A stretch of 64,000 nucleotides of DNA, from positions 48,298,001 through 48,362,000 of the forward strand of contig NC_091981.1 in assembly GCF_044704955.1 (NCBI RefSeq), written 5' to 3'. This document shows positions 70 to 24,877 of this stretch, piece after piece (position 1 is the stretch's first letter; every line of letters begins with the position of its first letter). This DNA comes from Pristiophorus japonicus (lineage: Eukaryota). The notes under the pieces are model-generated. The model saw nothing but the letters and a program-made list of their open reading frames with translations. It did not search any database and was not told the DNA's origin. A program made the translations under genes and the position numbers.

Positions 70-1979
70 TCACTTACGAGCAGACACTCGTACTCTGTGC
101 TTCTCTAGCTGTTTGAGGACTTCATTCAATATGTTATGATGAATTTGCCTATTTGGTGCTGAAATGAGTATGTCATCCAAATAACATACTACCCCTTCAA
201 TACCTTGCAAAATCTGATTCATCACCCCTTGGAATATGACAGGGGCGGAAGACACTCCAAACGGTAGCCTATTAAATTGATATAGGCCTAGATGAGTATT
301 TGTAGTCAAACATGACTTAGACTCCTCATCTAGTTCAAGCTGTAAGTGGGCATTTGTAAGATCCAGTTTTGAGAAGATCTGACCACCTGTCAGTGTTGTG
401 AACAAATCTTCTATATTCGGCAATGTATTGGGGACATTACCCTCTGGAACCTGGTTTACGGTTACTTTATAATCACCACACAATCTTACCTTACCATCGG
501 ACTTAGGTACAACAACAATGGGTGTAGCCCAATTACATCGATCTATCTTACAAATAATGTTCTCAGTCTCTAGTCTTTTGAGTTCTTGCTCAACTTTCTC
601 CTTGAGTGCATTTGGTACGGAACGTGGCTTGTAGTAAACCGATCTAAACCTTCTGTACCCTGATACTCGCCTTGAAGCCTTGGATCGGACTGCCCGTTTC
701 GCAGAACACCTTCGGATACTTCTTGATAACCTCATCCGTTGATGAAAATCTTGCTTCCACACAGAAAATCTTACTCCAATCCAGCTTCAGTGAGCTCAAC
801 CAATTTCTTCCTAGTAAGGCAAGCTTGTCTCCTTTCACTACTATTAGAGGCAAGTTCTGAAATTGATCTTTATATTTCACCGGTACGGTGATACGACCTA
901 CCACAGGAATTTTCTCTCCCGAGTAGCCTCGCAGCCCTATCTTGGATTTCTCCAGTTGGAAATCACGCAATTTGTCGAGGTACAGTGACTCCGGTACTAC
1001 ACTCACGGATGCACCCGTGTCAATTTCCATTGGTATCTTGAATCCCGCAACATCTATGTGGATTTTGATGCTTTCCGAATCGCTGTCCGTTAACTTCGTG
1101 CTCTTGATGACGTGTAACTCTAACATCTGTTGTTGTTGTTCCATGCTATGTAGTCTCTTGGGATTTCTACTCATAGCTTTGAACGCTGGACTCATAGCTT
1201 TGGAAGCTGGTTTACCCTTCAGTCGGCATGCCTTTGCAAGATGCCCAGTCTTCCTGCAGAAGAAACACGTATGGACAACTTTGAGCAATGTGTTGTCCCA
1301 GGCACCTATAGCACGACTTCAACGCTCTGTTAAAATTTCCACTTTCTAAGACTTTGGGCCCCCACCGTCTTTTACCTTGAACCTGCAGGTGATTTACCTC
1401 GGTTGACTGATGACCGTAATTATTATTTAATTCTCGGGAATATTGTTTGGCCATGCCCATCGGCCTCGCTGTCGGACAAGCAATCTCAAAAGTCAAGTCA
1501 TCCGTCGTCAATAACTTCCTTCTGATTGCATCATTTTTCACCCCACAAACAAAACGATCCCGTAATGCTCGATTTTGAAAGTTTCCAAAATTACAGTGCG
1601 TCGATAGCTTTTTTAATGCTACAATGTAATCACTGATACTTCATCAGCCTTTTGATTCCGAATCTCGAAACGATAGCTTTCAGCAATTTCTAACGGTTTG
1701 GGGTTATAATGCTGCTCCAGCTTCATTAAAATCTCTTTAAGTGTTGTGTCCTTTGGCTCGTCAGGCACAAGCAGATTTACAAGGGTTTCGTACAATGCCG
1801 GATCCGCCTCCGATAAGAAAATCGCTTTCTTACACTCCAATACAGCCCGGTTCTGGACTGCATTGTCTGGAACTTCGATTATGTTATTTGCAGTGAAAAA
1901 CATTTCTAGCCGATCCACATTTGCTTTAAAACGTTCCCGGTCATGTATATATTCCCCCAAATGTCCGATTACACCTGCC
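70..1979 (-). pseudogene. Gypsy gag-pol (gag, zinc knuckle, protease, RT), broken by frameshifts
   Basis: ORF track fragments 1619-2062, 1212-1541, 644-1288 and 70-762 are consecutive gag/PR/RT pieces in different frames. Confidence 0.9.
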
Positions 1980-2124
1980 ATTTTAATCTCTAGCTGTTCA
2001 CACCGTGTACTGTATTTTACCTCGGATTTTTGTAGCTTTTTTCCAAAGACAGAAACTTCCAAAGTCTCTCTGTCGGCTGGCTGAATCCTGCACCAACAAA
2101 ATGTAAGCTTTAAATCATCCGAAA

Positions 2125-2143
2125 AATCCCATCCTCGTCGTCA
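2125..2143 (-). promoter_or_regulatory. Primer binding site complementary to the tRNA-Ser(GCT) 3' end
   Basis: Plus strand AATCCCATCCTCGTCGTCA matches the vertebrate tRNA-Ser(GCT) 3' end (AATCCCATCCTCGTCG-CCA, from memory) with one mismatch, and lies 2 bp from the LTR edge. Confidence 0.8.
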
Positions 2144-2145
2144 AA

Positions 2146-2320
2146 TGTGATATTTTCACAGAGTACAACACACACAGCTTCCAACATGGCAGGCAGCTCT
2201 CTCGGAAGCCTCCGGAAATCTGCCTGGTTCTGTTTAATTATTAACTGTGCAATTCCAGTACACAATACATCCACATCCACAGTGTGGAGCTACAAACATT
2301 ACAAGCTTACAGACATTACA
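2146..2320 (-). repeat. 5' LTR of the Gypsy element (175 bp)
   Basis: TG...CA termini with an imperfect inverted repeat. Bounded by the PBS on one side and by resumption of Harbinger sequence on the other. Confidence 0.8.
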
Positions 2321-4329: not shown

Positions 4330-4485
4330 GCCACTCATTGATTGGAACTGGGGTAAATAAACAGAGAAAAAAGAATGGAATTTCTAAAAGGTGTGCAGGA
4401 CTCCTTTCTCAAACAAGGGAAGAGGCATTGTTAGATCCAGTTATGAGTAACGAAACAGGTAGATGACTTAAATGTGGGTGAGCAC
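4330..4485 (+). mobile_element. Old CR1 endonuclease-region fragment, left half; continues at 15244-15420
   Basis: Translates to TREEALLDPVMSNETG..LNVGEH and resumes FGSN..NMI after 15248. Compare PTRELAILDWVMCNEKG...GPLGKSDHNMV in the CR1 ORF at 25113. Confidence 0.6.
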
Positions 4486-4534
4486 TGTAATCTATGCACC
4501 TGTGAGTAAGCTCATAGGTTTTGTAGAGCTGTTG

Positions 4535-5806
4535 CTGCCTGCCTCTCTTCCGCGGTTACATCTGAGCCAGGGTGTCCCTGGAGATGGAGCACGCGGTGTC
4601 CACCGGTACGCTGTACGCTCGCAGCCTTCCGCGAGAGGTGGGCGCCGGAGGGACTGGAGTGCATCATCACCCCCGGCAACCAAATTTTAATTTGATTTTA
4701 TATGTTTTAAAGTTTAATTTGTTTTATTGCCGATTTTAGTGTCCCCCCAGTCAGGGGGCACTTACATAATTTGCCTCTCGGTGCCCTAAAAAAAACCAGA
4801 AAAAAACTCAAAAACCCCCCAAAAAAACAAAACAAAAATAAAAGGGCACCTGAAAAGTGTTTGGAGTGTCCCCCACCTTTAATAAGGGGGCACTTGATTT
4901 ATTTTTGTTTTGCAAAAGAGTTGCGGAGCTGTTGCTGCCTGCCTCTCTTCCGCGGTTACATCCGAGCCAGGGTGTCCCTGGAGATGGAGCATGTGGTGTC
5001 CACTGGTACGCTCGCGGCCTTCCGCGAGAGGTAGGCACCGGAGGGACTGGAGTGCATCATCACCCCCGGCAACCAAATTTTAATTTGATGTTTGTCTAAA
5101 GTTTAATTTGTTTATTGTGCCGGTTTTAGTATGTGTCGCCCCCCCCCCCTCCGCCCCAGCTTTTAAGCTTTTAGCCAGGGGATACTTGTATAATTTGTGT
5201 TTTTACTGCCCGAAAAAAAAGGGGCACTTGAAAAGTTTTTGGAGTGTGCCCCCCCCCCTTTGATCAGGGGGCACTTGATTATTAGTTTACAACTAAAATA
5301 GTTGTAGAGCTGTTGACTCGTGATCTTTGGGCACCCTGTGCGGAGGGGAGCGGGCAGGTCGGAAGGCCTCCTCGTAGGACTGCTCCTGGGCATGGTCAAG
5401 GGGGCCATCCGCCGGTCCAGGCAGTGGGCGGTCGAGGGGGTCGTTCAGCCCGACTGCCTGCCTCTCTTCCATAGTTACATCCGAGCCAGGGTGTCTCTGG
5501 AGATGGAGCACGCGGTGTCCACCGGTACGCTCGCGGCCTTCAGCGAGAGGTGGGCGTCGGAGGGACTGGAGTGCATCATCACCTCCAGCAATCAAATTTT
5601 AATTTGATTTTATGTCTAAATGTTAATTTGTTTAATTTGCCAGATTTAGTGCGCCCCCCGCCCTTTTAGCTAGGGGGCACTTGTATAATTTGTGTTTTTG
5701 TGCCCTCAAAAAAAAACAAGGGGGCACTTGTTTGAAAGTGTTTGGTATGCCCCCCCCCCCTTTAATCAGGGGGCACTTGATTTAACTGTTTTTCTACAAA
5801 AATAGT
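4535..5806 (+). mobile_element. Three tandem 5'-truncated Tx1 copies (4535-4921, 4935-5302, 5316-5806)
   Basis: Each has the ORF2 C-terminus (CLPLFRGYIRARVSLEMEHAVSTGTLAAFRERWAPEGLECIITP) plus 3' UTR, and each is separated by TGTAGAGCTGTTG or a variant. Confidence 0.9.
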
Positions 5807-6712
5807 TGTAGAGCTGTTGTGGGCGTGGCTTATTCACTTGGAGCTGTGACTGTGTGAAGGAAGGAGCTCCTGCAAACTGTGTACCCAGGAGAGGAGGAAG
5901 GGGTCAACTGTTATCAACACTTTGAGGGAGAAGAGGAGAGCAAGAGCTATAACACCACTGCTACCAAAGAGTTGGAGAGAGAGGAAAAGGAAAAAAAAGC
6001 TGAAACACCTTAAAAAGCAACATCATCTGTATGTAAGGAGGGAGAGCCATTATTCAACAATCTACAGGTGGGTGTATTTTGGTGCACTTTCCAAAGAGAC
6101 TTTGTTTTATCGGTGGGGGGAGGAAAGAAGATTAGTCAGAAGGCCGGAATAACGTGGGGGTGTGTGGATGTAAGTGTGTGTGGGGTTCTTGCCACCAACT
6201 AGGCCCCACACACCACTAGAAGCATAGCTCCCCATTGCCTGGCCCGGGATAGCTGGAGTTGCCTGGGTGAAGACTTGTTTTCCATCAATTAAACATTGTT
6301 GAGACTGGTGGAGGACTGTGCCTGGGTAGTTCCAGCTATCCCGGGTGAAGACATCTTCTCCCCCTGCCAGAGGACCATTCATAAGGACTTTATCTTGCCA
6401 TCAGGAGAGTGCATCCTTGCAAGCACCCACCCAACTTTGTGAGGAGTGACCTGCTTTTGCAGCCTTCCTCTTTCCCACCCCCCCCCCCTTCGCTCTCTGA
6501 CTGTCCCCTCTCTCCGAGAGGTCCCTTTCTCCTTTTTCTTAAAAAAATTAATTTAAAAAGAATTGAGTGGAGGGAAAAAGGCTCTTCCCCAATTGTTAAG
6601 CAGGGGAGAGGTGTGCCTCATTAAGAGCTACCTCTGCTCAAATAAAGGAGGCCAATTAAGATCTTTAGGCCTGAGACATTGGGGTGAGTGTTGCCCTTAA
6701 AGGGACCCTGAC

Positions 6713-7430
6713 ATGACGAGTCCATCTATGCCTGTGGCAGGGCCAGCGCAAACTTATGCGCGCATGGCGTCCACAGCCACGGCAACTTCTGCTGCTCCTG
6801 CTGTCCTGCCACTATTTAAATTACTAACTAAAAAGAATGGGGTCAAGAGCTACACTCACCCCAACATGAATATTGAGGAGTGCATGATGGCAATGGCTGG
6901 GGTAGTTGGCCCCTCGGCCATTGTTGCCGCCTCAAAAATGTATGGGAAGGCTGTGATCTTCCTGGGGCCGGAGCGGGCGGTGTCCTTGGCCCTTAGTAAG
7001 GGGCTCATGGTGGGTGGGACCTTCCTGCCGGTGGATCCCCTCGAGGCCACCACACAGAGACTCATTATTTCAAATGCCCCACCCTTTGTTCCCGGTGATC
7101 TCCTCCTCCCCCACCTTCGTCAACTGGGAGAGGTGAGGTCAGGGATAAATCCAATACCGCTCGGCTTCAGGAAGGCCAGCATCCATCATTTGTTCTCCTT
7201 CCGGCATCAGCTTTTCATTCAGCTGGCATGGGAAGAGGTAACAGAGGGAGCGTTCAAAGTGGTCCACAAGGGGACAGCCTACTGCTTATTCTGGATGTCG
7301 AACGGTGGGCGGTGCCAAGCCTGTAAGGAGGTGGGGCACATTCGCAAGAACTGCCCCGCCTCCAAGGCCGCTAAAACAGCCAAAGCGACCAAGGCTGGTG
7401 CCGCCGCCACTCCTCCCCCTGCCAGAGAGG
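6713..7430 (+). pseudogene. Tx1 ORF1 (zinc knuckle CQACKEVGHIRKNC), fused by an internal deletion to ORF2
   Basis: ORF 6713-7723 shows Tx1 ORF1-like motifs (AASKMYGKAVIFL, IISNAPPFVP) and then runs directly into endonuclease motifs (CLQETH). Confidence 0.8.
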
Positions 7431-10400
7431 CACATCGTAGATTTAACAATTTTTCGCTCTTGCAGGAGGGGAAATATGCGGTGTGCTGCCTGCAAGAAAC
7501 CCACACCGTTCCAGGAGACGAATCCATGTGGCTCCTGGAATGGCAAGGAGAGGTGGGGTGGCTATCTTGTAGGTCCCACATTTTCAGCTGGAGGTCTTGG
7601 GGGTCAAGGAACCTGTGTCACAGTTCGCCTGGGGGATGTGCCACTCCATTTAGTGAATGTGTACGCCCCCCCAGCCCGGCGCACACCAAGTGCGCTTCTT
7701 CGAAGAAGTGTCCACTCTTCTAGGCTTTGTCGACATCGGCGACTGCATTGTCCTCGGGGAGGATTTTAACTGCACCCTTGAGGCGAGGGACCGCTCTGGT
7801 GCCCCGCAGAGCATGACGATGATGGAGATGTTGAGGGACCTGGTTGGGTCCTTCGACTTGGTGGACGTCTGGCGAAATCTCCATCCCGACTCCAGCACCT
7901 GGAAGAGAATGGTCCAGAATCGACCGCCTTTGCGTGTCTCGGGCATACGTCTCCTGCGTTCCGGCGGCTTCCATGCGGCCGGCGCCGTGCTCGGGCCACC
8001 ACCTGTGTGGGCGGAACTCGCTTTGCTCCGCGCGCTGATGGGGTCTGTGTACTGGCATTTTAACAACCTGCTGCTGGAGGACGAACGGTTCCAGGGTTCA
8101 TTCCATCGGTTCTGATCCGACTGGCGAAGGAAGCAGGGGGGCTTCCCCTCCTTGAGGTTATGGTGGGACATGGGCAAGGCTCATGTCCATCTCTTCTGTC
8201 AAGACAATGCAAAGGGGTCGACCAAGAGGCGGGAGGCCAGGGTGGGGTGCCTGGAGAAGGAGGTGCTCGACCTGGAATCCCGTCTCGGTCAAGTCGTCAA
8301 GGACCCGGCCTTGCGGACGGTGTACGAAGCGAAGAAGGCCGCGCTGAAGGACCTGCAGCTTGTCGGGTCACGAGGCGCGTTCGTGAGGTCGCGGATCCGG
8401 TTCCTCCGGGACCTGGACAGCTGGAAAAAAGACAGGAGGTCCGTAAGCAGCTCTTGACGCTGCTGGCCGATGACGGATTTCTGGTCTCGGACCGGAGGGC
8501 ATCAGCAACAGGGCCCGAGACTATTACAGGGCTCTGTTCTCTCCAGATCCATCCAGCGAGGAAGCGTATAGAGTTTTGAGGGAGGACTTGCCGAAGGTTG
8601 GCCCGGAGGGCGCCGAAAATCTGGATGCTCCGCTAAGCCTGGTGGAGCTGACTGGTGCCCTCGACCAGCTCTCAAGGAGAAAGTCCCTGGGGCTGGACGG
8701 GCTGATTGTGGAGTTCCACAGGGCGTTCTGAGACGCGCGGGTCCTGGGGAAAAATCTGGCAACCGGGGAGATGCCCCTCTCTTGGCGCAGGGCAGTCATC
8801 ACCCTGCTGCCTAAGAAGGGCAATCTTTGTCTACTTAAGAACTGGTGTACGGTCTCCCTCCTCAGCACAGATTACAACATTTTTGCCAGGGTGATGTCTG
8901 CTCGCCTTGGCGCGTGCTGGACCAATCCCGACCAGTCCTACACGGTCCCGGGCCCGACAATCCACGATGACATCCATCTGGTCCGGGACCTGGTCCACCA
9001 TTCCCAGAGGACTGGTCTGTCGGTCGCCTTCCTTTCCCGAGACCAGGAGAAGGCGTTCGACAGGGTGGATTACGAGTATCTGTTCGGAATTCTGTGCGCT
9101 TTCGAGTTCAGAACGCATTTCGTCGCCCAGATCCGACTTTTGTATGCCGCCACGGAGTGTCTGATTAAGGTTAACGAGTCTTTGACGGCCCCCCTTCACT
9201 TTGGGAGAGGGATGCGCCAGCAATGCCCCATGTCCGGCCAGTTATATGCAATATGTGTGGAGCCTTTCCTGCGCCTCTTGCGGAAGAGGTTGATGGGACT
9301 GGCTCTGCAAGGGCCGGGCGTGGAGGTCACCCTCTCGGCTTACACCAATGACATGCTCCTCATGGTCGAGGATCCCATTGAACTGCGGAGGATGCGTGAG
9401 TGCCAGAAGATTTACTCGGCCACTTCCTCCGCCAGGATCAACTGGGAGAAATGTCCTGGACTCCTGGTGGGTCAGTGGCGGGTGGACTCCCTGCTGGAGG
9501 AGCTCAGGCCTTTGGCCTGGAGCACAACCCATCTCCTCTATCTGTGAGTCTACCTTAGCCCCGACGAGGAAGCCTGGCCGGCGAACTGGCAAGAGCTGGA
9601 GGCCAAGGTCGGCGCTCGCCTAGGGCACTGGACAGGACTGCTCCGAGTGCTGTCCTACAGGGGCCAGGCACTAGTCATAACCAGCTGGTGGCCGCTATGC
9701 TGTGGTATCAGTTGGTCAGTTTGACCCCTCCCCCTGCGTTTGTCGCCAAGATACAGAAGAAGCTGGTCAACTTCTTCTGGAACAACAGGAAGCACTGGGT
9801 CTCTACTGCGGTTCTGAGTCTCCCGCTTAGGGAGAGCGATCAGGCATTGCTGTGCATCAGCACCCAGCTAGCGACTTTCCGTCTTCAGACCCTGCAGAGA
9901 TACGTTGAGCCCCTCCTAGCTGGTGTGGGCTGGCAACGCATTTCTTCCACCAGCAGTACTGCCTCACCTACAACACACAGCTCCTATTTGTGAGCCTGGG
10001 GGGCGTCAGGACCGCCGTGCAGGGGCTGCCTGTCTTTTACCAGGAACTCATCAGGGTCTGAACAGAGTCGCCACCAAGCACAGTTCTCCCCCGTCTGGAG
10101 TGGCGGCTGTCCTTCGGGAGCCACTACTTAAGAATCCGTACCTCCACGACCGTGATTTTAGGTAGCAGGCGGACGAGAGCGCTGTGGCTGGCAAGGTGAC
10201 CAGGGTCAGGGACCTGCTCGATGGTGGAGGAGCGGGCTGGATGGTGCCAGACGAGTTGCTAAAAACAGCGCTGGGCCCTGACTCCGTTAGATGTGTCGAG
10301 GAGGCTGAAGCACATGGGGAGATCCAGTCCGAACTGACCCCCGTCCGGACAGAATTCCTCATCGGCACCAACCCCCGAAACCTCCCTCGGGAGCTGGCGC

Positions 10401-11100
10401 CTCACAACTTGAGCCTCCTCCGGGAAATCTCCTCCGTGCCTTTCAGTTCTGCGTGGAGGGGATTCCTGTTCGGGCTGCTCTTGCACACTCTCCACATTGC
10501 CATCTTCGTCTGCCATCCGGACACGCCATGGCGCACCATCTTGCCATCCGGAGGAGGCGGGGGGCCCCAATGGAGTGCTCTCTATGCGGGAGTCCTCCCT
10601 CTATTTATTGGGGACTTGGCCTGGAGGGTGTTGCACGAAGCAGTCCCCTGCTATAAGTTTTTAAGTTGGTTCATGGGCTCCCAGGTCGCCTGTAATTTTT
10701 GCGGTCTAGGGGAGTCCATGTTCCATGTGTATATTGAGTGTGCGAGGTTGTAGCCCCTCTTCCAATATCTGAAGGGGCTGCTCCTCAAATTCAGGTTGCA
10801 CTTCAGTCCCACACTCCTGATCTTTGGGCACCCTGTGCGGAGGGGAGCGGGCAGGTCAGAATGCCTCCTTGTAGGACTGCTCCTGGGCATGGCCAAGGGC
10901 GCCATCACCCGTTTCAGGCAGCGGACGGTCTAGGGGGTTGTTCAGCCCGATTGCCTGCCTCTCTTCCGTGGTTACATCCGAGCCAGGGTATCCCTGGAGA
11001 TGGAGCATGCGGTGTCCACCGGTACGCTTGTGGCCTTCCGCGAGAGGTGGGCGCCGGAGGGACTGGAGTGCATCATCACCCCCCGGCAACTAAATTTTAA
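7431..11100 (+). pseudogene. Tx1 ORF2 (APE endonuclease plus RT), with multiple frameshifts and stops
   Basis: ORF fragments 7657-8115, 8152-8457, 8771-9547, 9688-9993 and 10184-10753. Confidence 0.88.
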
Positions 11101-11340
11101 TTTGACCATTTAATATTGAAAGTTTAATTTGTTTAAGTTTGTCGGTTTTAGTGCCCACCACCACCCCCCCCCCCTTTTAGCCAGGGGGCACTTGTATAAT
11201 TTGCGTTTTGGTGCCCTCAGAAAAAATAAAAATAAAAAATAAAAGGGGGCACTTGATTGAAGTTATTGGAGTGTGCCCCACCCCCCTTTTAACCAGGGGG
11301 CACTTGATTGTTTGCAACTAAAATAGTTGTTGAGCTGTTG

Positions 11341-11832
11341 AGCGGGCAGGTCGGAAGGTCTCCTCGTAGGGGGCCATCACCCGGTCCAGGCAGCGGGCGG
11401 TTGAGGGGGTCGTTCAGCCCGACTGCCTGCCTCTCTTCCGCCACGGTGTCCCTGGAGATGGAGCATGTGATGTCCACTGCTATGCTCGCGGCCTTCCATG
11501 AGAGGTGGGCACCGGAGGGGCTGGAGTGCATCATCACCCCCAGCAACCAACTTTTAATTTAAGTTTACTGTCAAAAGTTTATTTTGTTTAACGTGTCGGT
11601 TTTAGTGCTCCCCTTTAATCAGGGGCACTTGTTTATCTGCACGCAGTGTCTATCGGTGCACTCTTGGTCTTCCGCGAGAGGCGGGCACCGGAGGGAATGG
11701 AGTGCTTCATCACCCCTGGCAACCAAATTTTTATTTGATCTAAGTTTCCGTTAAAGTTGCATTTGGAAATGTGTAGGTTCTAGTGCCCTTGCCAAAAGGG
11801 GGCACTTGATTTAAAGTTAGAATTAAAATAGT
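11341..11832 (+). mobile_element. Two more 5'-truncated Tx1 3' ends (11341-~11638 and ~11639-11832)
   Basis: Same ORF2 C-terminus and 3' UTR hairpins, followed by TGTAGAGCTGTTG at 11833-11845. Confidence 0.85.
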
Positions 11833-11879
11833 TGTAGAGCTGTTGAATTGTGAGTGGCTTAGCCAGTCACATGATAATG

Positions 11880-14800
11880 AGAACATAAGAAATAGGAGTA
11901 GGTCATTTGGCTCCTAGAGCATGCTCCGCCATTTTATAAGATCATGGCTGATCTGATCTTGGGCTCAGCTCCGCTTCCCTACCTGCTCCCCATAACCCTT
12001 CACTCCCTTATCGTTCAAAAATATATTCAATGACTCAGTCTCCACAGCTCTCTGGGGATTTACCACCCCCTGAGAGAAGAAATTCCTCCTCATCACAGTT
12101 CGAAATGGGTGACCCCTTATTCTGAAACTATGTCCCCTAGTTCTAGATTCCCCCATGAGTGGAAACATCCTATCTGCATCTACCTTGTTGAGCCCCCTCA
12201 GTATCTTCTATGTTTCAATAAGATCAATTCTCATTCTTCTAATCTCCAATGAGTATAGGCCCAACCTGCTCAACCTTTCTTCATAAGTCAACCCCTTCAT
12301 CTCAGGAATCAACCTAGTGAACCTTGTCTGAACTGACTCCAATGAAAGTATACCCTTCCTTAAATAAGGAGACCAAAACTGTACGCAGTACTCTAGGTGT
12401 GGCCTCACCAATAGCCTGTACAGTTGTAGTAGAACTTCCCTGCTTTTATACTCCAGCCCCCTGCAATAAAGCCCAACATTCAATTTGCCTTCATGATTAC
12501 TTGCTATACCTGCACACTAACTTTTTGTGTTTCATGCACAAGGACCCCCAGGTCCCTCTGTACTGCAGCATTTTGTAATCTCACTCCATTTAAATAATAA
12601 TTTGCTTTTTTATTTTTCCTGCCAATGTGGTAATGTCATACTTTATCACATTATACTCCATCTGCCAAATGTTTGCCCACTCACTTAGCAGCTTCTTTGT
12701 GTCCTCCTCACAACTTGCTTTCCCACCTATCTTTGTATCATCAGCAAACTTGGCTATATTACACTCGGTCCCTTCATCTAAGTCATTAATATAGATTGTA
12801 AATAGTTGAGGCCCCAGTACCAATCCCTGCGGCACCCCACTAATTACCGTTTCCCAAGTGGAAAATGACCCATTTATCCTGACTCTCTGTTTTCTGTTAA
12901 TTAGCCAATCCTCTATCCATACTAATATATTACCCCCAACCCCGTGAGCTCTTTATCTTGTGCCCTAACTTTTTATGTGGCATCTTATCGAATGCCTTCT
13001 GAAAATCCAAATACACCACATCCACTAGTTCCCCTTATCCACCCTGCTCATTACATCCTCAAAGAACTCCAGCAAATTTGTCAAACATGATTTTCCTTTC
13101 ATAAAACCATGCTGACTCTGCTTGACAGCATTATGATTTTCCAAATGTCCTGCTATTGCTTCCTTAATAATGGACTCCAGCATTTTCTCAATGACAGATG
13201 TTAGGCTAACTGGTCCATAATTCCCTGCTTTCTGTCTCCCTCCTTTTTTAAAGAGGGGCATTACATTTACAGTTTTTCAATCCACTGGGACCTCTCTCGA
13301 CTCCAGGGAATTTTGGTAGATTGCAACCAATGCATCCACTATCTCTGCAGCCACTTCTTTTAAGACCCTAGGATGCAGGCCATCAGGTCCAGGGAACTTG
13401 TCCACCTTTACTACCATTATTTTACCGAGAACTTTGTCTTTAGTGTTAGTGATAGTGATTGTTTTAAGTTCCCCCCTCCCTATAGTCCCCTGATTATTTA
13501 TTATTGGGATGTTTTTAGTGTCTTCTAAAGTGAAGATTGATACCAAATATTTGTTCAAAGTCTCTGCCATTTCTCTGTTCCCCATTATTAATTCCCCAGT
13601 CTCATCCTCTAAAGGATCCTCTTCCTTTTTATATACCTGTAGAAGCTCTTATTATCTGCTTCTAGATTTCTTGCTAGTTTACTCTCATAATCCAACTTCT
13701 CTCTCTTTATTATTTTTTTAGTCATCCGTTGCTGGTTTAAAAACATTTCCCAATCCTCTGGCCTCCCACTAATCTTGGCAACATTGTATGCATTGTTTTC
13801 AATTTGATACCATTCTTTATTTTCTTAGTTAGCTACGAATGGTTCTCCCTTCTCTTAAAGTTTTTCCTTCTCACTGGAATATATTTTTGTTGAGAGCTAT
13901 GAAATATCTCCTTAAATATCTGCCACTGCTCATCAACCGTCTTACACTGCAATCTATTTACCCAGTCCACTTTAGCGAACTCTGCCTTCATATCTTTGTA
14001 GTCGCCTTTATTTAAGGACACTGAATTGGAGGGTGAGAAAGTTGGGTCTCAAACTAATTTGAACTTCAACCATGCTATGATCACTCTTTCCTAGAGGATC
14101 CTTTACTATGAGATCATTTATTAATCCTGTCTCATTACACAGTACCAGATCTAAGATAGCCTGCTCCCTGGTTGGTTGCACAATGTACTGTTCAAGGAAA
14201 CCATCCAGAATAACTCTATGAACTCTTCCTCAAGGCTACCTTGGCCAATTTGATTTGTCCAATCAAATATTAAGATTAAAATCGCCCATGATTATTGCCG
14301 TATATTTCTTACAAGCCTCCATTGTTTCTTGATTCATACTCTGTCCAACATTGTGGCTACTGTTAGGGGGCCTATAGACTATGCCCACCAGTGACTTCTT
14401 CCCCTTCTTATTTCTGATCCCCACCCAAACTGATTCTACATCTTGATCTTCTGAGCCAATATCATTTCACTATTGCATTGATCTCATCTTTTATTAACAG
14501 AGCTACCCCACCTCCTTTTCCTTTCTGTCTATCCTTCCAAATTGTCAAATATCCCTAAATATTCAGTTCCCAGCCTTGGTCACCTGGCAACCACATGTCT
14601 GTAGTGGCTAACAGATCATACCCCTTTATATCTATTTGTGCTGTCAACTCATCTATCTTGTTATGAATGCTGTGTGCATTCAGATAAAGAGCTTTTAATG
14701 TTGTCTTTTTACCATTTTTCCCTGCTTTCTGTCCCTTCCTGTCACACTCTGGTTGTCATTTCCTCTATCACTACCCTGCTCTATTGCCTTCTCCTTTCTC

Positions 14801-15050
14801 TTTGACTTTTAAAATTTCTGCTCACCTGAACCCTCCCCCCACTATTTAGTTTAAAACCCTCTCTATAGCCCTAGTTATTCGATTCACTAGGACACTAGTG
14901 CCAGCACGGTTCAAGTGAAGCCCGTCCCAATGCAACAACAGGCGGGGCAGTGGGCGGGTCAATGCAACAACTCCCTCTTACCCCAGTACTGGTGCCAGCA
15001 CACCAGGAATCAAAACCCATTTCTCCCACACCAGACTTCGAGCCATGTGT
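11880..15050 (-). mobile_element. CR1 LINE, 5'-truncated and degenerate
   Basis: Minus-strand ORF pieces PQGLVLGPQLF, KFADDTK, QHGFMKGKSCLTNL and VRPHLEYCVQFWSP. 3' tail ...CCTATTTCTTATGTTC; approximate TSD TGATAATG/TGATGATG. Confidence 0.92.
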
Positions 15051-16079
15051 TGATGATGTTCACAAGACTCAATAAAACCCCAGCCAGTTGGGTTCAGGAG
15101 ATCCACGATGGTGGTTGTGAGCCTGGTGGATGAATTGGTAATGTGTAGTGTGATTGCTAAACCTTTGCAAATAAACCAACTAGTTCTTAAAAGCAATGTG
15201 TTGCTATGAATTCTTAAAGAACCCATGAAGCAAATACATTACAAACACTTTGGGAGTAATGAGCTTAATATGATATAGTTTACAGTCCAAATAGAAAGAG
15301 AAAAGGTTAGTATACAAACAAGGTCATCAGATTAAAATAGGGTAGATTTTAGACAGACCAAGAGTGAGCAAACAGCTAAAAAAGAAAGTTCTTTTATGTT
15401 CAAATCACAGAGGGATAGCCTGCATATTGTAAACTTATGAATGATATGTTAAATACAATGTGTAATTATCCATATAATTTGGAGTGAGATATGTGAGCAT
15501 CAAAAGGCAAGCTAATTTCGGCACTTCAGAAACCTTAAATGTTGGTAAGGTAAATTCCAATCCAATTCTCTGATGTATGCGTGTTAGAAGGGAGTCAGAT
15601 TTGTCTGATATTCTTTGACTAATATTAATATTAACTAATATTGGAATTTTATATACAATATTTCTTACGTAATTTACAGGATTTAAGGGCCGAAATTGAT
15701 GGACCGCACAATTCTCGGCGGTCTCGCGGTGGTCGGTCTATCTTCACCGCCCGGTACCGCTGGGGCGGAGTGCTGGCAACATTGGTCCGGATGATCCTGA
15801 GCGGTGCGTCAGCAGAGTGCGATGGACGGTCTGCTCCAGTGGTGCAGGGTAAGTTGTCTGGGACTTGGGACTCCTCGGGTCCTGAATTCTACGCACGCGC
15901 GCTCTTGCATCGACCGCCGTCCCCTGTCCCCCCCACCGCCGCTGAGAAGAGCAGTCCGGAGGCCAGAGACTGCCAACGTCGGGTCGCGGGTAAGTATAGA
16001 TTTTTAATTGTTTTGTGCAGCATTTTTTATTTATTTATAACACTTATATTGTTATTTATTTTTTAATTTTTGTTTTTCT

Positions 16080-17584
16080 GGGGGGGGGGGGGTGGAATAA
16101 ATCTCTGGGGGGGCGGGGATTAGATCTCTGGGTGAGAGGACTAGATCTCTGGGGGTGGGGGGGACTTAGATCTCTAGGGGGGGCGACTTAGATCTCTGGG
16201 GGGGGACTTAGATCTCTGGGGGAGGGACTTAGATCTCTGCGGGGAGGGGGATTAGATTGCTGGGGGGGGGATTAGATCTCTGCGGGGGGGGAATTAGATC
16301 TCTGCGGGGGGGATTAGATCGCTGGGGGGGGATCAGATCTCTGCGGTGGGGGATCAGATCTCTGCGGTGGGGGATCAGATCTCTGCAGGGGGGATTAGAT
16401 CTCTGCGGGGGGGGGATTAGATCTCTGCGGGGGGGGAAATTAGATCTCTGCGGGGGGGATTAGATCGCTGGGGGGGGATCAGATCTCTGCGGGTGGGAAT
16501 TAGATCTCTGCGGTGGGGGATCAGATCAATGTCGTGGGGTTCAGATCTCTGCGGGGGGGGATTAGGTCTCTACGGGGGGGACTTAGATCTCTGCAGGGGG
16601 GGAATTAGATCTCGGGGGGGGACAGATCTCTGCGGGGGGGGATTAGATCGCTGGGGGGGGGATTAGATCTCTGTGGTGTGGGATTAGATCTATGCGGTGG
16701 GGGATTAGATCTCTGCGGGGGGGGGAATTAGATCTTTGCGGGGGGGGAATAGATCGCTGGGGGGGGGATCAGATCTCTGCGGTGGGGATCAGATCTCTGC
16801 GGGGGGGATTAGATCTCTGTGGTGTGGGATTAGATCTATGCGGTGGGGGATTAGATCTCTGCGGGGGGGGGGAATTAGATCTTTGCGGGGGGGGAATAGA
16901 TCGCTGGGGGGGGGATCAGATCTCTGCGGTGGGGATCAGATCTCTGCGGGGGGGATTAGATCTCTGTGGTGTGGGATTAGATCTCTGCGGTGGGGGATTA
17001 GATCTCTGCGGGGGGGGGATTAGATCTTTGCGGGGGGGGATTAGATCACTGGGGGGGGAATCAGATCTCTGCGGTGGGGGATCAGATCTCTGCGGGGGGA
17101 TTAGATCTCTGCGGGGGGGAATTAGATCTCTGCGGGGGGGATTAGATCGCTGGGGGGGGATTAGATCTCTGCGGTGGGGGATCAGATCTATGCGGCGGGG
17201 GATCAGATCTCTGCGGGGGGGGGATTAGATCTCTGCGGTGGGGGATCAGATCTCTGCGGGGGGGGGGTTAGGTCTCTACGGGGGGGGACTTAGATCTCTA
17301 CGGGGGGGGAATTAGATCTCTGCGGGGGGGAATTAGATCTCTGCGGGGGGGAAATTAGATCTCTGCGGGGGGGAATTAGATCTCTGCGGGGGGGGATTAG
17401 ATCTCTGTGGGGGGGGAATTAGATCTCGGGGGGAGTGGGGGGGGGAAGGGATTAGATCTCTGGGTGCAAGGATTAGGACTAGATCTCTGGGGGTGGGATT
17501 AGATCTCCAGGGGGGATTATATCTCTGGAGGGCGGGGGGGGGGGGGGTTGAAGGACTAGATTGCGGGGAGGGGGGGAGGACTAT
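16080..17584 (+). repeat. G-rich minisatellite, unit about 20 bp (GGGGGGATTAGATCTCTGC); continues at 24159-24420
   Basis: Dozens of directly visible tandem units with variable G-run length. Confidence 0.95.
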
Positions 17585-18289
17585 GGGCTAGACGTTCCAC
17601 TCTTTTTGCATCGATACCGCCCACTTAACGTCCATTTTAACGCTGAGATGAGGTATAACATCCAGATATCACCCATTTAGGCACAAAAATGGAAAATAAC
17701 GTCCATGTATCGATCACTTATCGCCCAACGTTACGTTCGGCATGTAACTAACGCCGAGAATCGCCCACTTTTTTTTTGTAGTAAAGATCAGAATTGCCGA
17801 ATCTAACGCCCAAAATATCGCCGAGCGTTACCTTCGGCACCTTGCACACATATCGCCGAAATGATTTATCGCCGAAAAAACCGCTGTGAAAAAGTTGCTC
17901 TCACCTGAACTAACCACAGTGGTATGGACGCCATTTTGTAAATCACAGGTCGATTCATTTAAAAGGCTGCTTCAACTTCTGGGGAGTTTTTTTAAGGTGA
18001 TTTGAACATCTGAACAAACATCTTATCATACTGTGGATGATTGGAATTTAGTTTAGGTGTCTTAGTGGGAAAAATTATTGTCTGTGAACAATAGGTATAA
18101 TACTGATAGGCCCCATTCCAATAACTGTCATTTCTCAGCCTGTCTTGATGACCACACACACATGCTGCAGCTAGAGATGGCAGAAGGTATATTCAACAGC
18201 ATTACGTGCCCAATCTAAGACATGCCAGACTGCTGAAGAGGATGAGACCTTACACCCCACGCACTTACAGGGAGAAGCGGTCTTACCTT

Positions 18290-18494
18290 CGCTGCCTCAG
18301 GGAGCTGTGGAAGCTGGTACATTGAATAAATTTAAGACAGAGATAGACAGTTTCTTAACCGATAAGGGAATAAGGGGCTATGGGGAGTGGGCAGGAAAGT
18401 GGACCTGAGTCCATGATCGGATCAACCAAGATCATATTAAATGGCGGAGCAGGCTCGAAGAGCCGTATGGCCTACTCCTGCTCCTATTTCTTAT
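18290..18494 (+). mobile_element. CR1 3'-end fragment; second shorter copy at ~21836-21965
   Basis: GCTGTGGAAGCTGG...AGGCTCGAAG...CCTACTCCTGCTCCTATTTCTTAT, the same tail as other CR1 copies in the window. Confidence 0.8.
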
Positions 18495-21421
18495 TGTTAT
18501 ATCTTTAATATTCTTATGAATGACGAGGTCTAGTATTGTACTTGAGCTGTTGTAACCTTAGTCCCATTTATTGTAACTCCAGAGTGAGGCACAAGCATGG
18601 TGGGCAGCCTTTTATACTGGGCCCTGCACACCTATTCAGGTCTCCCACCGCAGGGCCCTCTGGTGGCACACCTTATGTGACTATATAGTTAGTATACATG
18701 GTCTGCATACATGACATCACTTCCCCCTAAGTCCTTAATACAAATTGATTCGTACATTGACGTTAACCTGGGCTTTGTTCTTCCTGGTTGACCATTGGAG
18801 GGTCGCTTCTAGCTTGGGTGGGTTGGTAGTGAGATTTGTTGCTAGTGGAGGTCCCCGTGGTTTCTGGTTGTGAGTCCATGACTACTCCATTCTCCCCACC
18901 ACACAGAGATCATGCTAATAGCTCATTACATGCAAGTTGTATTCAAGTTCATCACATGGGTTTTACATTTACATCTTGGTTGCGGGTGACCCTTCGCTCT
19001 TGGGCATTGCCGTGGTGGCGATTGGGTTTGTGGGCTGCGCCTTTTCCACCCGGGTGGTGGGCAACGGTAGCCGACTGCGAGCATTGGCGCAGTTTACTGT
19101 TTCTGGCCCGTGGCAGTTCATGCCATCGGGTGCCTGCAATGTTAAACCGATTTGAGGCAGGGTATCGCTACCGGTGCCTCTACTCTCCGGGGATCATTTA
19201 CTCTGCGGCTTGTCTACTTCTGTCAGCTGTAGGGACACTTTATGATACATCGTTCTGGTCCCGGGGACGCAGACTACAGCATTGGGTAGCCTGCTGGACC
19301 TGTATACGACCGTTAGGTGTTCGCCCGCTACATTGGCTGATTGCAATTTGCACCCGACATCGCTCAACAACATATTGCTCGTTACAGCTGGACTTTTGCA
19401 TTGGTTACCAATTTCAAGCAGTTGGGTTGCTGGCCTCCTTTAAACTGGCCTTACTACTTTTACCCCAATCATCTTCCTTGAATGGAACCATATGTCGTTG
19501 CTCCATTAGCGCTGCACCTCGTGGTTTGGACGCCATCTTTTCCCTGTCCATGATGTTAACTGCCGCGATCTTCTTTTCCAGGGATTCCGCCATTGAAGCT
19601 GGGAAGGCACCCTCAGATCCAATCTTCCTCCCCAGGAGTCCTGCTACTGAAACCAGGAAGGTGCGTTCGGCCGGGTCATTGCCACGCAGTCGTGATGAGC
19701 GGTCTGTGCCTCAGGGGCTGCACAGATCTACTCTCCAGTGCTTGGTCCAACCGAAGGTGGGGGCTTGCTCTGCCTCTGTGCATGGGGAATGTCGATCGCT
19801 GGAGGGATGAAGTCTTCCCAGTTCCAATGAATCTTCCCCATCCATCTTCTTCCAAGTGGCGTTGGTCCATCACCTGAAACAATTCACAATGGTAAATTGT
19901 GCACCGCGCCATCATGGGATACACGTACATCCGCACTACCAACAACTGATATCAGTTCCTTGGTGCAGGTGCGCAGCTTTGCCTGAACCGGGACCAGCTT
20001 GGGTCGTTCAGCTTGATCGTTCCATAGCCTCTCAAAGGCTTCCTGGCTCATTACTGACTGACTCCCCCACCCCGTGTCCACTTCCATGAAGACTGGAACG
20101 CCATTTATTGCGACTTCCATTATCGCTGGAGGACAATCTGTGGTGCAGGTATATACTCCATACACTTCGTCCTGGGAGTGAGCTGCCTTTCTAGCCATCT
20201 CCTCATAATCTGCGCTGGATTCACAGGCATCTGCTGACTCCTCTTCCACGTGGTGAGTCACAGCTCTTTTGCACATTCGCTGGAGGTGGCCCTTTGTGCT
20301 GCAGCCTTTGCACACATAGTCTCTGAATCGACACTGATGAGCCCTGTGATTACCTCCGCAACGCCAGCATGGTGCTACTCGACTTACGTTTGCACCCCTC
20401 GGCGGACTCTGAATTAAAGTACTCGGGGGGGGGGGGGGGGCCTGTATGCTCTGCCCTGGGCAGATTCACGTTCAACAGTTCTGTCTGTGAAAGGGGCCAT
20501 TCTATTTACAATACTTGCCGGGTTTGAGCCCTGAGAGTGAGTGATCATCTGCTTGGAGCTGCAGCTTGAGGTCCTGAATGCCTGGCTGATGCTGATGGCC
20601 TTCTGCAGAGTGACGGTGGTTCGGCAGACAGTAGCCTGTGAAGAAGGGCCTCATGACCAATGCCAATTATGAAGACGTCCTGCAACGCATCGGCGAGGAA
20701 TGCGCCGAATTCATATGGTCCTGCCAGCCTCCTGAGGTCGGCAGCGTACTTTGCGATTTCCTGGCCCTCGGGGCGGCGGTGTGTATAAAATCGATGCCTG
20801 GCCGTGAAGATGCTCTCCTTCGGTTTGAGTTGGTCCTGAATGAGCACTTTCAGCTCCTCGTATGACTAGTTCGTTGTTTTCTGTGGTGCAAGCAAGTCCC
20901 TGACAAGGCAGTAGACTGCAGGCCCACAACTGGTCAACAGGATAGCTCTGCACTTATCTGCCAGTGTGACCGGATCATCGCCTACCAGGTCGTTTGCTAC
21001 AAAATATTGGTTGAGCTGCTCCGTAAAGGCTTCCCAATCTTCACCCTCTGAGAACTTTTCTAATGCACCAACATTTGTCATTTTTGTGTGAAAGTTCGTA
21101 ATCACGTCGCCAGCTGTTATGTCTTTAATACACTTATGAATGACTCCACGAGGTCCAGTATTGTACTTGAGCAGTTGTGACCTTAGTCCCATTTATTGTA
21201 ACTCCAGAGTGAGGCACAAGCATGGTGGGCAGCCTTTTATACTGGGCCCTGCACATCTATGCAGGTGACCTTCAGGTCTCCCACCACAGTGCCCTCCGGT
21301 GGCACACCTTATGTGACTATAAAATTAGTATACATGGTCTACAACTCTTTTTGGGGAGTACAAAATAACATTAGATCGAGTGCCCCCCAATCTGGGGGAT
21401 ACATGGTCTACATACATGACA
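18495..21421 (-). mobile_element. Internally deleted Gypsy LTR retrotransposon with both LTRs (18495-18716 and 21115-21421)
   Basis: Paired similar LTRs TGTTAT...ATGACA, PBS TGGCGACGTGAT next to the 5' LTR, PPT AGGGGGAAGTGA next to the 3' LTR. Gag (FTARHRFY, CKGCSTKGHLQRMC) and protease (MEVDTG) remnants. Confidence 0.9.
21344..21398 (-). mobile_element. 55-bp Tx1 3'-terminal fragment inside the Gypsy 5' LTR
   Basis: Minus strand TCCCCCAGATTGGGGGGCACTCGATC...AAAAAGAGT resembles the Tx1 array tails (GGGGGCACTTGATTT...AAAAGAGT). Flanked by ATACATGGTCTACA repeats (21330-21343, 21399-21412) and absent from the partner LTR. Confidence 0.78.
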
Positions 21422-21666
21422 AAGTTGCTCTCACCTGAACTAATCACAGTGGTATGGATGCCATTTTGTAAATCGCAGATCGCTTCATTTAAAAGGCTGC
21501 TTCAACTTCTGGGGAGTTTTGAGGAACTGTGGAGTTCTTTTCAGGTGATTTGAACATCTGAACAAACATCTTATCATACTGTGGATGATTGGAATTTAGT
21601 TTAGCTGTCTTAGTGGGAAAAATTATTGTTTGTGAACAATAGGTACAATACTGATAGTTATTGGAA

Positions 21667-22702
21667 TGGGGCCTGTCATTTCTCAGCATGTCTTGATGAC
21701 CACACACATGCTGTAGACTAGAGATGGCAGAAGATATATTCAACAGCATTATGTGCCCAGTCTAAGACGTGCCAGACTGCTGAGGAGGACGAGACCTTAC
21801 ACCCCACGTACTTACAGGGAGAAGCGGTCTTATCTTCCCTGCCTCAGAGAGCTGTGGAAGCTGGAACATTGAATAAATTTAAGACAGAGATAGACAGTTT
21901 CTTAACCGATAAGGGAATAAGAAGTTATGGGGAGTGGGCAAGAAAATGGATCTGAGTCCATGATCTTACCTGAACTTGTCCGATAACATGTGCCTTAGGA
22001 GGCTGCGCTTCCACAAGGAGGTTATCAGTGAGATATGCCAGCTCATCGGGGAGATGTGTAGCCTGCCAGTACCATCAGGACCGCACTGTTCATCGAGATC
22101 AAAGTCACCGTGGCACATTCGTTCTACGCATCAGGTTCCTTTCAGGCCTCAGCTGGTGACATTTGTGGTATATTTCAGCATGCCACACATTGCTGCATTC
22201 GACGGGTCACTGAAGCCCTTTATGCACGCAGGATGGATTTTATCAGCTTCCCTATGACCAGGGAGGCACAGACGGAGAGGGCTCTAGGATTCTACCAAAT
22301 TGCTAACTTCCCCAAGGTGCAGGGAGCAATAGATCGTACGCACAGCGCCATAGAGGCACCTTTTCAGGATGCAGAGGTTTTTCGGAACTGAAAGGGATTC
22401 CACTCCCTGAATGTGCAACTCGTTGTCGACCGCCAGCAAATTATTGTAGCAGTGAATGAAAAATTTCTGGGCAGCATCCATGATGCTCACATCCTGTGTG
22501 AGAGCACTGTATCTGACTTGTTTACCAGTCAGCCACAATGTCACTGCTGGATGCTTGGTGACAAAGGATATGGCCTCGCCACCTGGCTGATGACACCCCG
22601 CTGCGTAACACCCAGACGGAAGCCGAGAAGTGATACGCGAGCCACAGAGCCACACGCAATATCGTCGAGAAAACCATTGGAGTGTTTAAGCAGCGCTTTA
22701 GA
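21667..22702 (+). pseudogene. Harbinger (HARBI1-like) DDE transposase, disrupted and 3'-truncated
   Basis: Motifs FYASGSFQ, FPKVQGAIDRTH, FRN*KGFHSLNVQLV, HDAHIL, WMLGDKGY and LKQRF. Confidence 0.88.
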
Positions 22703-22945
22703 TTTTTTTTTTTTTTTTGAAATTCGTAGCCAATCGTTCCAATTCTTTGTCAAATCACAAACGCCAGAGGTCACCTTGGGCCCATTCAAGGATCACTCTG
22801 CGCCAATGCTCTTAGCCAAAAGGCCTAGAGCCACTGCACCGTTCCTGGAAGTACTGCAATACCAGGTTCGTGCCATGGAGGTGGATGGGTCAGGTCCCCC
22901 ACACACCTCCGTGGAGGTGGATGGGTCAAGCCACCCCACCCACAG
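22703..22945 (-). mobile_element. Poly(A)-tailed retroposed fragment containing U2 snRNA-derived segments
   Basis: Minus strand carries ACCTGGTATTGCAGTACTTCCAGGAACGGTGCA (U2 3' stem-loop IV), then GGCCTTTTGGCTAAGA (U2 5' stem), about 90 nt of unique tail, and A16. Confidence 0.75.
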
Positions 22946-22970
22946 AAGCGATGATGTATACTTTACTCAC

Positions 22971-23710
22971 GTGGCATCACATCAGATTCTGCTGCTGCTT
23001 GCGTAGCTGACCGGGGGTGGCTCCCCACTAGTGCCAGCACCCGCTCCTCAATGTCAGTGAGGTCGCTGATGACTGGTGACTCGCAACCCGTTCGCCGCTG
23101 CTCGGCCCTATTCTTCAAAAGCTTCTTCTGTAAAAGGTAACACCAGCACGACATGGCATGCGATCATTGCATATGATCACTGCTAGATATTGTCACAGAG
23201 ACTGATACAACACATAATCGACAGATGTAATCATGATTATTATGAAAATTATCATTCTTTACCTAAAAACATACACGGTAAACGCAGACTTTGAATAAAA
23301 CATTCCCGGTATAAGTGCAAGACATCACATCTGATTTTAATCACTCATTACACTTACAGTTCAAATTATATAAATATATAAGTAAATGTAATACTTACTC
23401 TGGCTGATCCGCCAAGGTCGTTCCAGCACTTGCGGCACTGGTTGTCCTCACGCACCTCGTTGGTCACAGACGAGACCACCTCGGCTATGTCAGCCCATAT
23501 CTTCTGGTAGACCTTTGGGATGGGCTTCCCACGCCCACCCTGGATCAATTGACTCCAGCGTGATTAGACCCCCTGCAGGAGGGAGGTATTTGCCTCGTCC
23601 GAGAATCTCCTCGCTATTTTTTGTCCTCCCAATTGTTCCTCTCCCACCTCCCTGCTTTTACCAGCGTCAGTCTCCACAGTGTGCTGTGTCACCTCCTCCA
23701 TCCCTTCCAT
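22971..23710 (-). pseudogene. Harbinger Myb/SANT-like DNA-binding protein gene, exons ~23710-23399 and 23127-22971
   Basis: YQKIWADIAEVVSSVTNEVREDNQCRKCWNDL and NRAEQRRTG motifs, with GT/AG boundaries. Exon 3 is lost. Confidence 0.8.
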
Positions 23711-24877
23711 TGTAAAAAAAAAATTTCCCCTCAAAACTCGGTGGGAACAACGTTATTTGTGCTCTGAATTCTTTTTGCTGCTGGAAAATCTCCCTCCTAC
23801 CTCCCAAAACAGCCAAACAAGCACACACCACACCCATACACGCTTTCAGTTCCTCTCTGCTCCCTCTTTCTCTCTCTCTCCTCTTCTGCGCATGTAATGA
23901 TGACCCCTGACCTCCTGAAAGACGGGAAGCGACCGTTGTCATGCCGTTGCTATGGATGCCGACACTTTATGGCAGAAGGTGAAAAATTTAACGCTACCAC
24001 CCATTTGAGATCATTCGCGGTAACGCCTATTTTATAAAATGGAAAGTTGGGGTTTTGAAAATGGCGATAATCCGGCAATCTCAAAACCCATATTTATTGC
24101 TACGCTGGAAATAACGCCCATTTTTGGCGAATCTGCACAAAAGTGGAAAGTCTAGCCCCAAATCTCTGTGGGGGGGAGGGGAGAGAAATCGATCGCCGGG
24201 GGGAGGAATAGATCGCTGGGGTGGGATTAGATCTCCTGGGGGGGGGATTAGATCTCTGTGGGGGGAGGATGAGATCTCTGGGGTGGGATTATATCGCATG
24301 GGGATTAGACATCCGGGGGGATTAGATCTCTGGGGGTGGGTGGGAGGTATAGATCACTGGAGGGGAGGACTATATCTCTGAGGGTGAGGGGAGAGAAATA
24401 GATCGCTGGGGGGAGGAACATTGTAGATTACATACTGCCGACATACCATCGGCATGAAATCACCTTTTTTCAGACGGTGTGCAGCTCAGGTGGTATGTCA
24501 GCGGTATACTACCAATGTCGGACTTTTGGGCGGTCTGTAGGGTGCTCCATGTGGGTGAACGGTATGCATACCGCCCGGTGGTATGTCACTGATGAATTTC
24601 CCGCCGGGCGGTATGTGAGCGGTATGTAGGTATTTTATGATCAATTTCGCGATTTTGGGCAGTATGTCGGCGGTTCGCGGGCGGTATGTCCACCAATTTC
24701 GGCCCTTAATGTTCATCAATTTTCCAGTATCCTTAAAAATACAGTACGATATAGTTGGTTATTCTCTAAAGCCAGTTCACCACAGCAAGGGGGATTATTT
24801 TTGTTAATTTTCTGAGATTTGATGGTGTATAAATTAGGCAAATCTGAAACTTGCAGTTGCTTTACAGTTATGTTTAA

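Follow-up and report, generated by a model that had tools for sequence, protein, structure and literature searches.

A Tx1-clade LINE family with a strongly preferred site in a Gypsy long terminal repeat forms head-to-tail arrays whose neighboring units often share a 5' start point

A Tx1 array lies inside a solo LTR

We analyzed a 64,000-nucleotide (nt) stretch of the Pristiophorus japonicus genome (contig NC_091981.1, positions 48,298,001 to 48,362,000; here, the window), in which copies of a Tx1-type long interspersed nuclear element (LINE) are lined up inside a solo long terminal repeat (LTR) of a Gypsy retrotransposon family that we call LTR-A. The LINE family inserts at a fixed site and in a fixed orientation, with 13-14 bp duplications and precise, tail-less 3' ends, and its independent insertions build head-to-tail arrays. 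We consider it probable that this family strongly prefers a 13-bp site in LTR-A and otherwise uses TGTR, and that newcomers at an occupied site inherit the 5' junction of the resident by annealing.

The LTR at locus 1 begins with TGTAAT at 4486 and ends with ATTACA at 15243. Its first 36 nt (4486-4521, forward strand) match the starts of empty LTR-A copies and are followed by the target 13-mer, TGTAGAGCTGTTG, which is present in six copies (4522-4534, 4922-4934, 5303-5315, 5807-5819, 11328-11340, and 11833-11845), two of them with one or two changes. These copies set apart five Tx1 units of 387, 368, 491, 5508, and 492 nt, all on the forward strand. Unit 1 (4535-4921, GAGT-type tail) and unit 2 (4935-5302, TAGT-type tail) are both 5'-truncated and start at the same position of the element; their 3' untranslated regions (UTRs) are 67% identical. 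Unit 3 (5316-5806) is again 5'-truncated with a TAGT-type tail. Unit 4 (5820-11327) is full length but decayed, has no poly(A) tail, and shares its 5' start with copies at loci L188, L351, and L352. Its open reading frame 1 (ORF1), at about 6701-7420, has a weak zinc knuckle match (E value of 0.002, under Pfam's cutoff), and its ORF2 has endonuclease and reverse transcriptase (RT) regions in broken frames, with the RT at 8732-9544. Unit 5 (11341-11832), 5'-truncated, adjoins the right part of the LTR, and we infer that it is the oldest of the array.

LTR-A resumes on the forward strand at 11846-11878 and, after an interruption, at 15049-15243, where AATAAA occurs twice (15071 and 15170) before the terminal ATTACA. 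The interruption is a CR1-type LINE on the reverse strand at approximately 11879-15048. It has no relation to the Tx1 units and shows inverted matches to another CR1 at 25077-27927. The whole is flanked by an imperfect 5-bp duplication, AGCAC at 4481-4485 and AACAC at 15244-15248, that matches at four of five positions. The arrangement at locus 1 is far beyond chance.

LTR-A is a multicopy Gypsy family

The original prediction had rebuilt from this locus a solo LTR of ~270 bp with the target 36 bp from its start and a 5-bp target site duplication, and had called for a search for empty copies. The rebuilt LTR proved to be real: it belongs to a multicopy Gypsy family whose empty copies measure 272-275 nt and carry an intact site, and the 13-mer at 4522 lies where the target had been placed. 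The length of the duplication held for the family, in which 32 of 51 two-ended LTRs match at 4 or 5 of 5 bp and the 4-bp and 6-bp registers give no match; the copy in the window itself reaches only 4/5. An exact LTR-A 29-mer has 7,930 matches in the genome and is contained in 6 of 30 copies, and we therefore estimate that LTR-A is present in some tens of thousands of copies.

One locus, L258, contains a whole element: two LTR-A copies 5 kb apart enclose a zinc knuckle, RT, RNase H, and integrase, and the 5' LTR is occupied by Tx1, whereas the 3' LTR is empty. The LTR-A primer site is complementary to the 3' end of a tRNA-Ser(GCT) gene (in L230). Judged by its TG...CA LTRs, primer site, polypurine tract, 5-bp duplication, and domain order RT-RNase H-integrase, the host element is a Gypsy (Ty3) retrotransposon. 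At L047 (positions 960-1700; contig C3, 322.687 Mb), a pair of LTR-A copies stands just ~190 nt apart, on either side of the primer site and purine tract, which resembles an internally deleted element of the terminal-repeat retrotransposon in miniature (TRIM) type.

The inserted LINE belongs to the Tx1 clade

The RT piece of the window LINE shares 57% identity over 99% with the ORF2 protein of Xenopus Tx1 (YTX2, P0021). A tblastn comparison with P0021 covered, in this order and across broken frames, residues 18-67, 112-396, 402-881, and 951-1291. In an RT tree built from 25 of 120 listed hits plus three window proteins, with no Keno, Kibi, or crocodilian rows, the family falls in a nine-row clade with Xenopus, sturgeon, ray, and turtle proteins (support, 100/99), and the nearest RT is from a ray. 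On this placement, the presence of two ORFs, and the order of endonuclease before RT in ORF2, the family is classified as a Tx1-clade LINE.

A flank-blind pattern for the 3' end of the family gave 5,156 matches in the 5.9-Gb genome, and a control gave 0. When its sensitivity was checked twice, the pattern recovered 7/22 and 3/22 of the occupied sites, from which we estimate that there are roughly 16,000-38,000 Tx1 3' ends genome-wide. No intact ORF2 was seen in unit 4 or in the two candidate full-length copies, L351 and L352, each of which is interrupted by Gypsy elements. For RNA, nothing was listed over 10700-11880, a result that has no bearing on expression. At L018/L028, an LTR is inserted right behind a Tx1 fragment; nesting between Tx1 and LTR elements goes in both directions.

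LTR-A is favored several thousand-fold over TGTR background

We examined the first 100 listed 3' ends, which lie on contig C1 between 5 and 183 Mb and some of which come from one array. The 13-mer stood behind 65 of these flank-blind ends. By what they run into, 33 of the 100 enter LTR-A, 32 meet the 13-mer and then Tx1, 1 meets the 13-mer and then other DNA, and 4 meet another 13-mer and then Tx1; the remaining 30 are off-target terminal ends. The original prediction had set targeting against insertion at TGTAGA sites in proportion to background, and targeting held for the array-terminal ends in LTR-A (33/64) and not for those that are off target (30/64). Both LTR-A shares (33/100 ends and 33/64 terminal ends) exceed the 20% of flanks in one repeat type that serves as the threshold for target specificity in the accessible text of Kojima 2015 (PMC4494074). 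By hand count, 73 of 100 intact 13-mer sites were occupied, as were 22 of 50 scorable LTR-A copies collected blind to the site (~44%; one unscorable copy was left out and one tandem duplicate was entered once).

The unique 3' region (U3) of an LTR is copied at every Gypsy replication, and this occupancy could in principle reflect a few U3 insertions multiplied as cargo of the Gypsy element, an idea that would suit the common start and tail of L065 and L066. However, the 52 LTR-adjacent Tx1 units have 51 different start points and are therefore independent insertions rather than hitchhikers. L065 and L066 also have ~240 nt of outside flank in common, which implies local duplication, and in L258, the single full element seen, the LINE is in the 5' LTR only. 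Cargo amplification is already largely refuted, and we give it almost no credence.

The 30 off-target flanks begin with T (29), G (27), T (26), and A or G (27), and a 13-14 nt duplication is visible at 6 of the 10 off-target ends with a long upstream flank, with L191 as a seventh case. TGTR sites number ~1.1e8 genome-wide (scaled up from the window), and the off-target rate is ~0.4-1e-4 per TGTR site versus ~0.44 for LTR-A. LTR-A is thus favored several thousand-fold over the TGTR background. The off-target share differed with the tail, being 13/24 for GAGT-type and 21/76 for TAGT-type ends (P = 0.025).

The off-target share was also uneven along contig C1: it was 1/30 among the first ends, and from a low level over the first 36 Mb it rose markedly deeper into the contig, a gradient that perhaps follows LTR-A density. 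At L260, L087, and L061, Tx1 tails of just ~8-25 nt are still flanked by the 13-mer, and L061 consists of several tiny units in a row. LTR-A copies reading TGTGGAG seemed overrepresented among empty copies and were considered as an escape variant; this idea was rejected, as within the subfamily TGTGGAG copies were occupied in 38/61 cases and TGTAGAG copies in 18/39 (P = 0.15, hand count). When TGTRGA was taken as intact, occupied copies (18/22) and empty copies (15/28) did not differ significantly (P = 0.07).

Arrays are polar, and neighboring units often share a start point

A GAGT-type unit stands ahead of a TAGT-type unit in 17 of 18 mixed neighbor pairs, and all 9 complete mixed arrays show this order too. 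One half of the duplicated 13-mer in L126 and L204 is LTR sequence and the other half is the start of the downstream unit; the later insertion is therefore the upstream unit. Private or hybrid 13-mers are common to the 5' block in six arrays, to an internal pair in one, and to the 3' block in none. Together, these patterns strongly indicate that Tx1 arrays grow 5'-ward, newcomers entering the upstream duplicate of an occupied site.

Neighbors frequently begin within 3 nt of each other on the element. Such shared starts were found in 48 of 88 neighbor pairs and in 42 of the 74 in which both units are complete, and these 42 pairs are spread over 32 of 46 locus ids, a few of which overlap. Between loci, the corresponding figure was 366/22,615 (1.6%). 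Units that share a start are otherwise dissimilar: their 3' UTRs are less than 85% alike in 38 of 41 pairs, some of these values being lowered by missed junctions, and their tail types differ in 12 of 42. Arrays at off-target sites also form with shared starts, the local 13-mer being repeated in place of the LTR-A one (L111, L199, L205, L210-212, and L215).

Rare non-CpG variants revealed where the likeness lies. We used 34 shared-start pairs that remained after six overlapping loci and the window's duplicates were dropped. Within the first 160 nt, 28 of 110 rare variants of the downstream unit were also present in the upstream unit, against an expected 3.1 (variant sites within one pair are not independent). 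The excess persisted when tail types differed (11/38; expected, 0.9). It was absent beyond 160 nt (4/153; expected, 5.6) and in pairs with different starts (2/38; expected, 1.7).

Shared starts might instead have arisen after insertion, through tandem duplication or unequal exchange followed by gene conversion of one tail. Unequal exchange within an array can produce a unit with the start of one neighbor and the tail of another, and two sets of arrays have features of this sort: an internal pair in L186 has a common private 13-mer, and the units of L105/L119 follow alternating patterns. Plain duplication, however, would leave tails alike, unlike those of the 38/41 and 12/42 pairs above. Unequal exchange also requires an upstream donor for the tail, yet the chimeric unit is often the first of its array, right behind the left part of the LTR (L064, L076, L094, L104, L108, L110, L024, L144, and the window). 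Random conversion, moreover, would not set GAGT ahead of TAGT in 17 of 18 pairs, nor would it restrict common variants to the first 160 nt. We therefore consider a postinsertion origin of the shared starts unlikely.

At L007 (361-1134, reverse strand), each array unit opens with ~35-40 nt of LTR-right-like sequence ahead of Tx1, and non-LINE junction sequence seems to be inherited there too.

New copies are probably joined to the resident by annealing

The best reading of the array data is that new cDNA is joined via annealing to the resident copy, whose 5' junction it inherits. Following the established chemistry of target-primed reverse transcription (TPRT), the bottom strand would be nicked at the left edge of the 13-mer, the nick would prime reverse transcription, and cDNA would be made from the precise 3' end; a top-strand break 13-14 nt to the right would then give the duplication. 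At an occupied site, the DNA to the right of the upstream duplicate would be homologous to the new cDNA. If the top strand opened or broke within the resident, some tens of bases from its start, it could then anneal to the cDNA and prime the second strand. The array data strongly indicate that such annealing spans the resident's first tens of bases, up to ~160 nt, in over half of re-insertion events. The product would have the resident's start and first tract, private variants included, followed by the newcomer's tail, with the resident intact behind it, which is the arrangement that the arrays show.

Several results weigh against this reading or narrow it. Starts differ in 32 of 74 neighbor pairs, including three of the window's four, so inheritance of the junction is frequent and not obligatory. 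A shared variant is present in only 16 of the 34 deduplicated shared-start pairs; one pair (L064) supplies 8 of the 28 shared variants, and none occurs in the pair in the window. The array subset L091-L120 was chosen for one tail type. Divergence is the same for GAGT-type (0.051) and TAGT-type (0.054) units (P = 0.29), and with no age difference visible there, the order in age of the two types is carried by the hybrid 13-mers by themselves. Finally, the off-target flanks fall to chance level beyond position 4 (74/270 at positions 5-13, P = 0.36).

As for why LTR-A is preferred to other TGTR sites, RNA that reads through into the LTR could pair with the nicked strand and so favor insertion there. 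We infer only weakly that such pairing helps to explain the preference. Alternatively, the endonuclease may read a longer site. We lean toward read-through pairing because the off-target flanks show no partial matches. A search for 3' transductions demonstrated none: the LTR left part was present in 46 arrays, a further 11 extended past the end of the locus, and 45 were scored "absent," in many cases because parsing halted at an internal junction or at another insertion.

A broader proposal would be that homology, beyond the endonuclease alone, decides whether an insertion succeeds, so that residents make any site, off-target ones included, a repeated target and pass their truncated 5' junctions on to newcomers, and read-through pairing explains the several thousand-fold LTR-A preference, for which the 4-base nick motif is not enough. 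We put this forward tentatively and with some doubt. If it is true, occupied sites would trap new cDNAs, possibly full-length ones, and turn them into dead, truncated copies.

Comparison with known site-specific LINEs

The original prediction knew of no Tx1 family of this sort, but such families are in print: Kojima 2015 (PMC4494074) reports that the crocodilian families Tx1-8_Crp and Tx1-4_AMi prefer specific groups of LTR retrotransposons. They resemble the present family in being Tx1 families with an LTR preference and differ in host and LTR; the accessible text names no site, motif, or LTR class, nor does it mention shared truncation points for them. It does report, for SINEU-3, tandem insertions that sandwich a duplication. 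Tx1L of Xenopus laevis belongs to the same clade, has the same endonuclease-RT order, and likewise targets another transposon; according to the accessible text of PMC4494074, this is the DNA transposon Tx1D, whereas the target here is an LTR. LTR targeting by a Tx1 LINE is thus a known habit, of which the present family is a new and very large example.

Drosophila R1 arrays offer a close structural likeness in the consulted portion of PMC2718515. Their units are separated by a 14-bp duplication, they grow into the duplicate at the resident's 5' end, and off-target copies are many in species rich in arrays, so that they share with the Tx1 arrays 5'-ward growth, duplication-separated units, and off-target copies. 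Further points of likeness are a fixed first nick, a flexible second break, and annealing that gives precise 5' junctions. R1 differs in that it belongs to another clade, targets 28S ribosomal DNA (rDNA), and anneals 28S sequence carried on the RNA to the upstream target. Inheritance of the resident's truncation point is not described in that portion. For both R1 and R2, the top strand is described as breaking at flexible positions and the 5' junction as forming with annealing. Accurate reverse transcription by R1Bm is said to depend on target sequence downstream (PMC7265360).

Templated or chimeric L1 insertions provide a parallel for the annealing step: as described in the available part of a preprint (bioRxiv 10.1101/2024.08.27.596794), the cDNA pairs with nearby homologous DNA in a process like synthesis-dependent strand annealing (SDSA), and the duplicates are <250 bp long and <=15 bp from the insertion site. 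Those events are rare (22 in 10 tumors) and somatic and use non-L1 templates. In the Tx1 family, by contrast, the outcome is that of the majority at occupied germ line sites, and the template is a resident of the same family. Our literature search, which did not extend to Repbase, Dfam, or most subscription journals, turned up neither a description of this family nor one of truncation-point inheritance in LINE arrays.

The joining of LINE 5' ends and the priming of the second strand are still poorly understood, according to the part of PMC6895275 consulted. Thousands of natural re-insertions at one site would here form a record of 5' joining, with the start and a short tract from the resident and the rest from new RNA, so that the tract length and rate of homology-directed joining could be measured within one genome. 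This array record matters more than the LTR targeting itself. It also leads to the prediction that re-insertion at occupied sites mostly gives truncated copies, which is relevant to site-specific LINE tools for gene delivery.

A Tx1 tail in a second LTR is compatible with chance

A second Gypsy element in the window (LTR-B) has its 5' LTR, with adjoining primer site, at 21115-21421 and its 3' LTR at 18495-18716, both on the reverse strand. As the original prediction had described, a 55-nt Tx1 tail lies 9 nt from the start of the 5' LTR (21344-21398, reverse strand; GAGT type) within a 13-14 nt duplication and is missing from the sister LTR, where we found TGCAGA instead of TGTAGA at the insertion site; the TGTA motifs that it had noted near the starts of the window's other two LTRs are also present. 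What it had built on these features, a LINE that targets LTR starts, stood for LTR-A, with its fixed site near the start and its sense orientation, and failed as a general rule.

General targeting of the LTR starts (U3) of many families, perhaps guided by a protein or chromatin mark that they have in common, was checked on four LTR families. In its favor, besides the tail in LTR-B, there is one insertion 11 nt into a copy of a further family, LTR-D (L353), and both are short GAGT-type tails. The genome holds 2,033 LTR-B sites and a single LTR-B/Tx1 junction, the window's own, to be set against the 44% occupancy of LTR-A; the off-target rate predicts about 0.1-0.2 occupied copies. Inspection of the first 100 LTR-B sites revealed 0 occupied, and none of the other 29 best matches to the 55-nt tail is located in LTR-B. 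The motif of a third family, LTR-C (LTR at 2146-2320), gave 0 exact junctions among 32 matches, and that of LTR-D (LTR near 27430-27640) gave one genome-wide, at L353 (LTR-D copies uncounted). Ends at noncanonical TGTAGA sites point the same way: 90 were found, and among the 62 examined, only the window's lies at an LTR-B start, the others being in CR1-like DNA, other repeats, unlabeled DNA, or LTR-A variants. General targeting is therefore very unlikely. There may be a few-fold excess at LTR starts, with any such occupancy about a thousand times under that of LTR-A. Chance could account for the position of locus 2 in an LTR start, and the locus is an off-target insertion and not a second instance of the main targeting.

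The LTR-B element is bracketed by ~550-nt duplicates (17891-18418 and 21421-21965; 93-95% identity), and its own flanks show no short target duplication, which together suggest a local rearrangement. The Gypsy element at 1-2320 (reverse strand) has a 175-nt LTR-C that begins with TGTAAT, like LTR-A, and a similar primer site; tblastx pieces of the LTR-C and LTR-A elements show 30-70% protein identity. The LTR-D copy at 27430-27640 (reverse strand) is a solo LTR inside CR1, with a 65-nt stretch in common with LTR-B (74%).

Other features of the window

A G-rich minisatellite of 21-nt units (AGATCTCTGCGGGGGGG-like) occupies 16080-17520 and 24160-24410, beside Harbinger-like sequence, and a DDE_Tnp_4 fragment lies at 22392-23003. 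Another L1/Tx1-like LINE is found at 52400-57525 (forward strand), with a ZCCHC3-like ORF1, RT, zf-RVT, and AATAAA followed by a short poly(A); it is only ~36% identical to Xenopus Tx1 and sits on a long branch.

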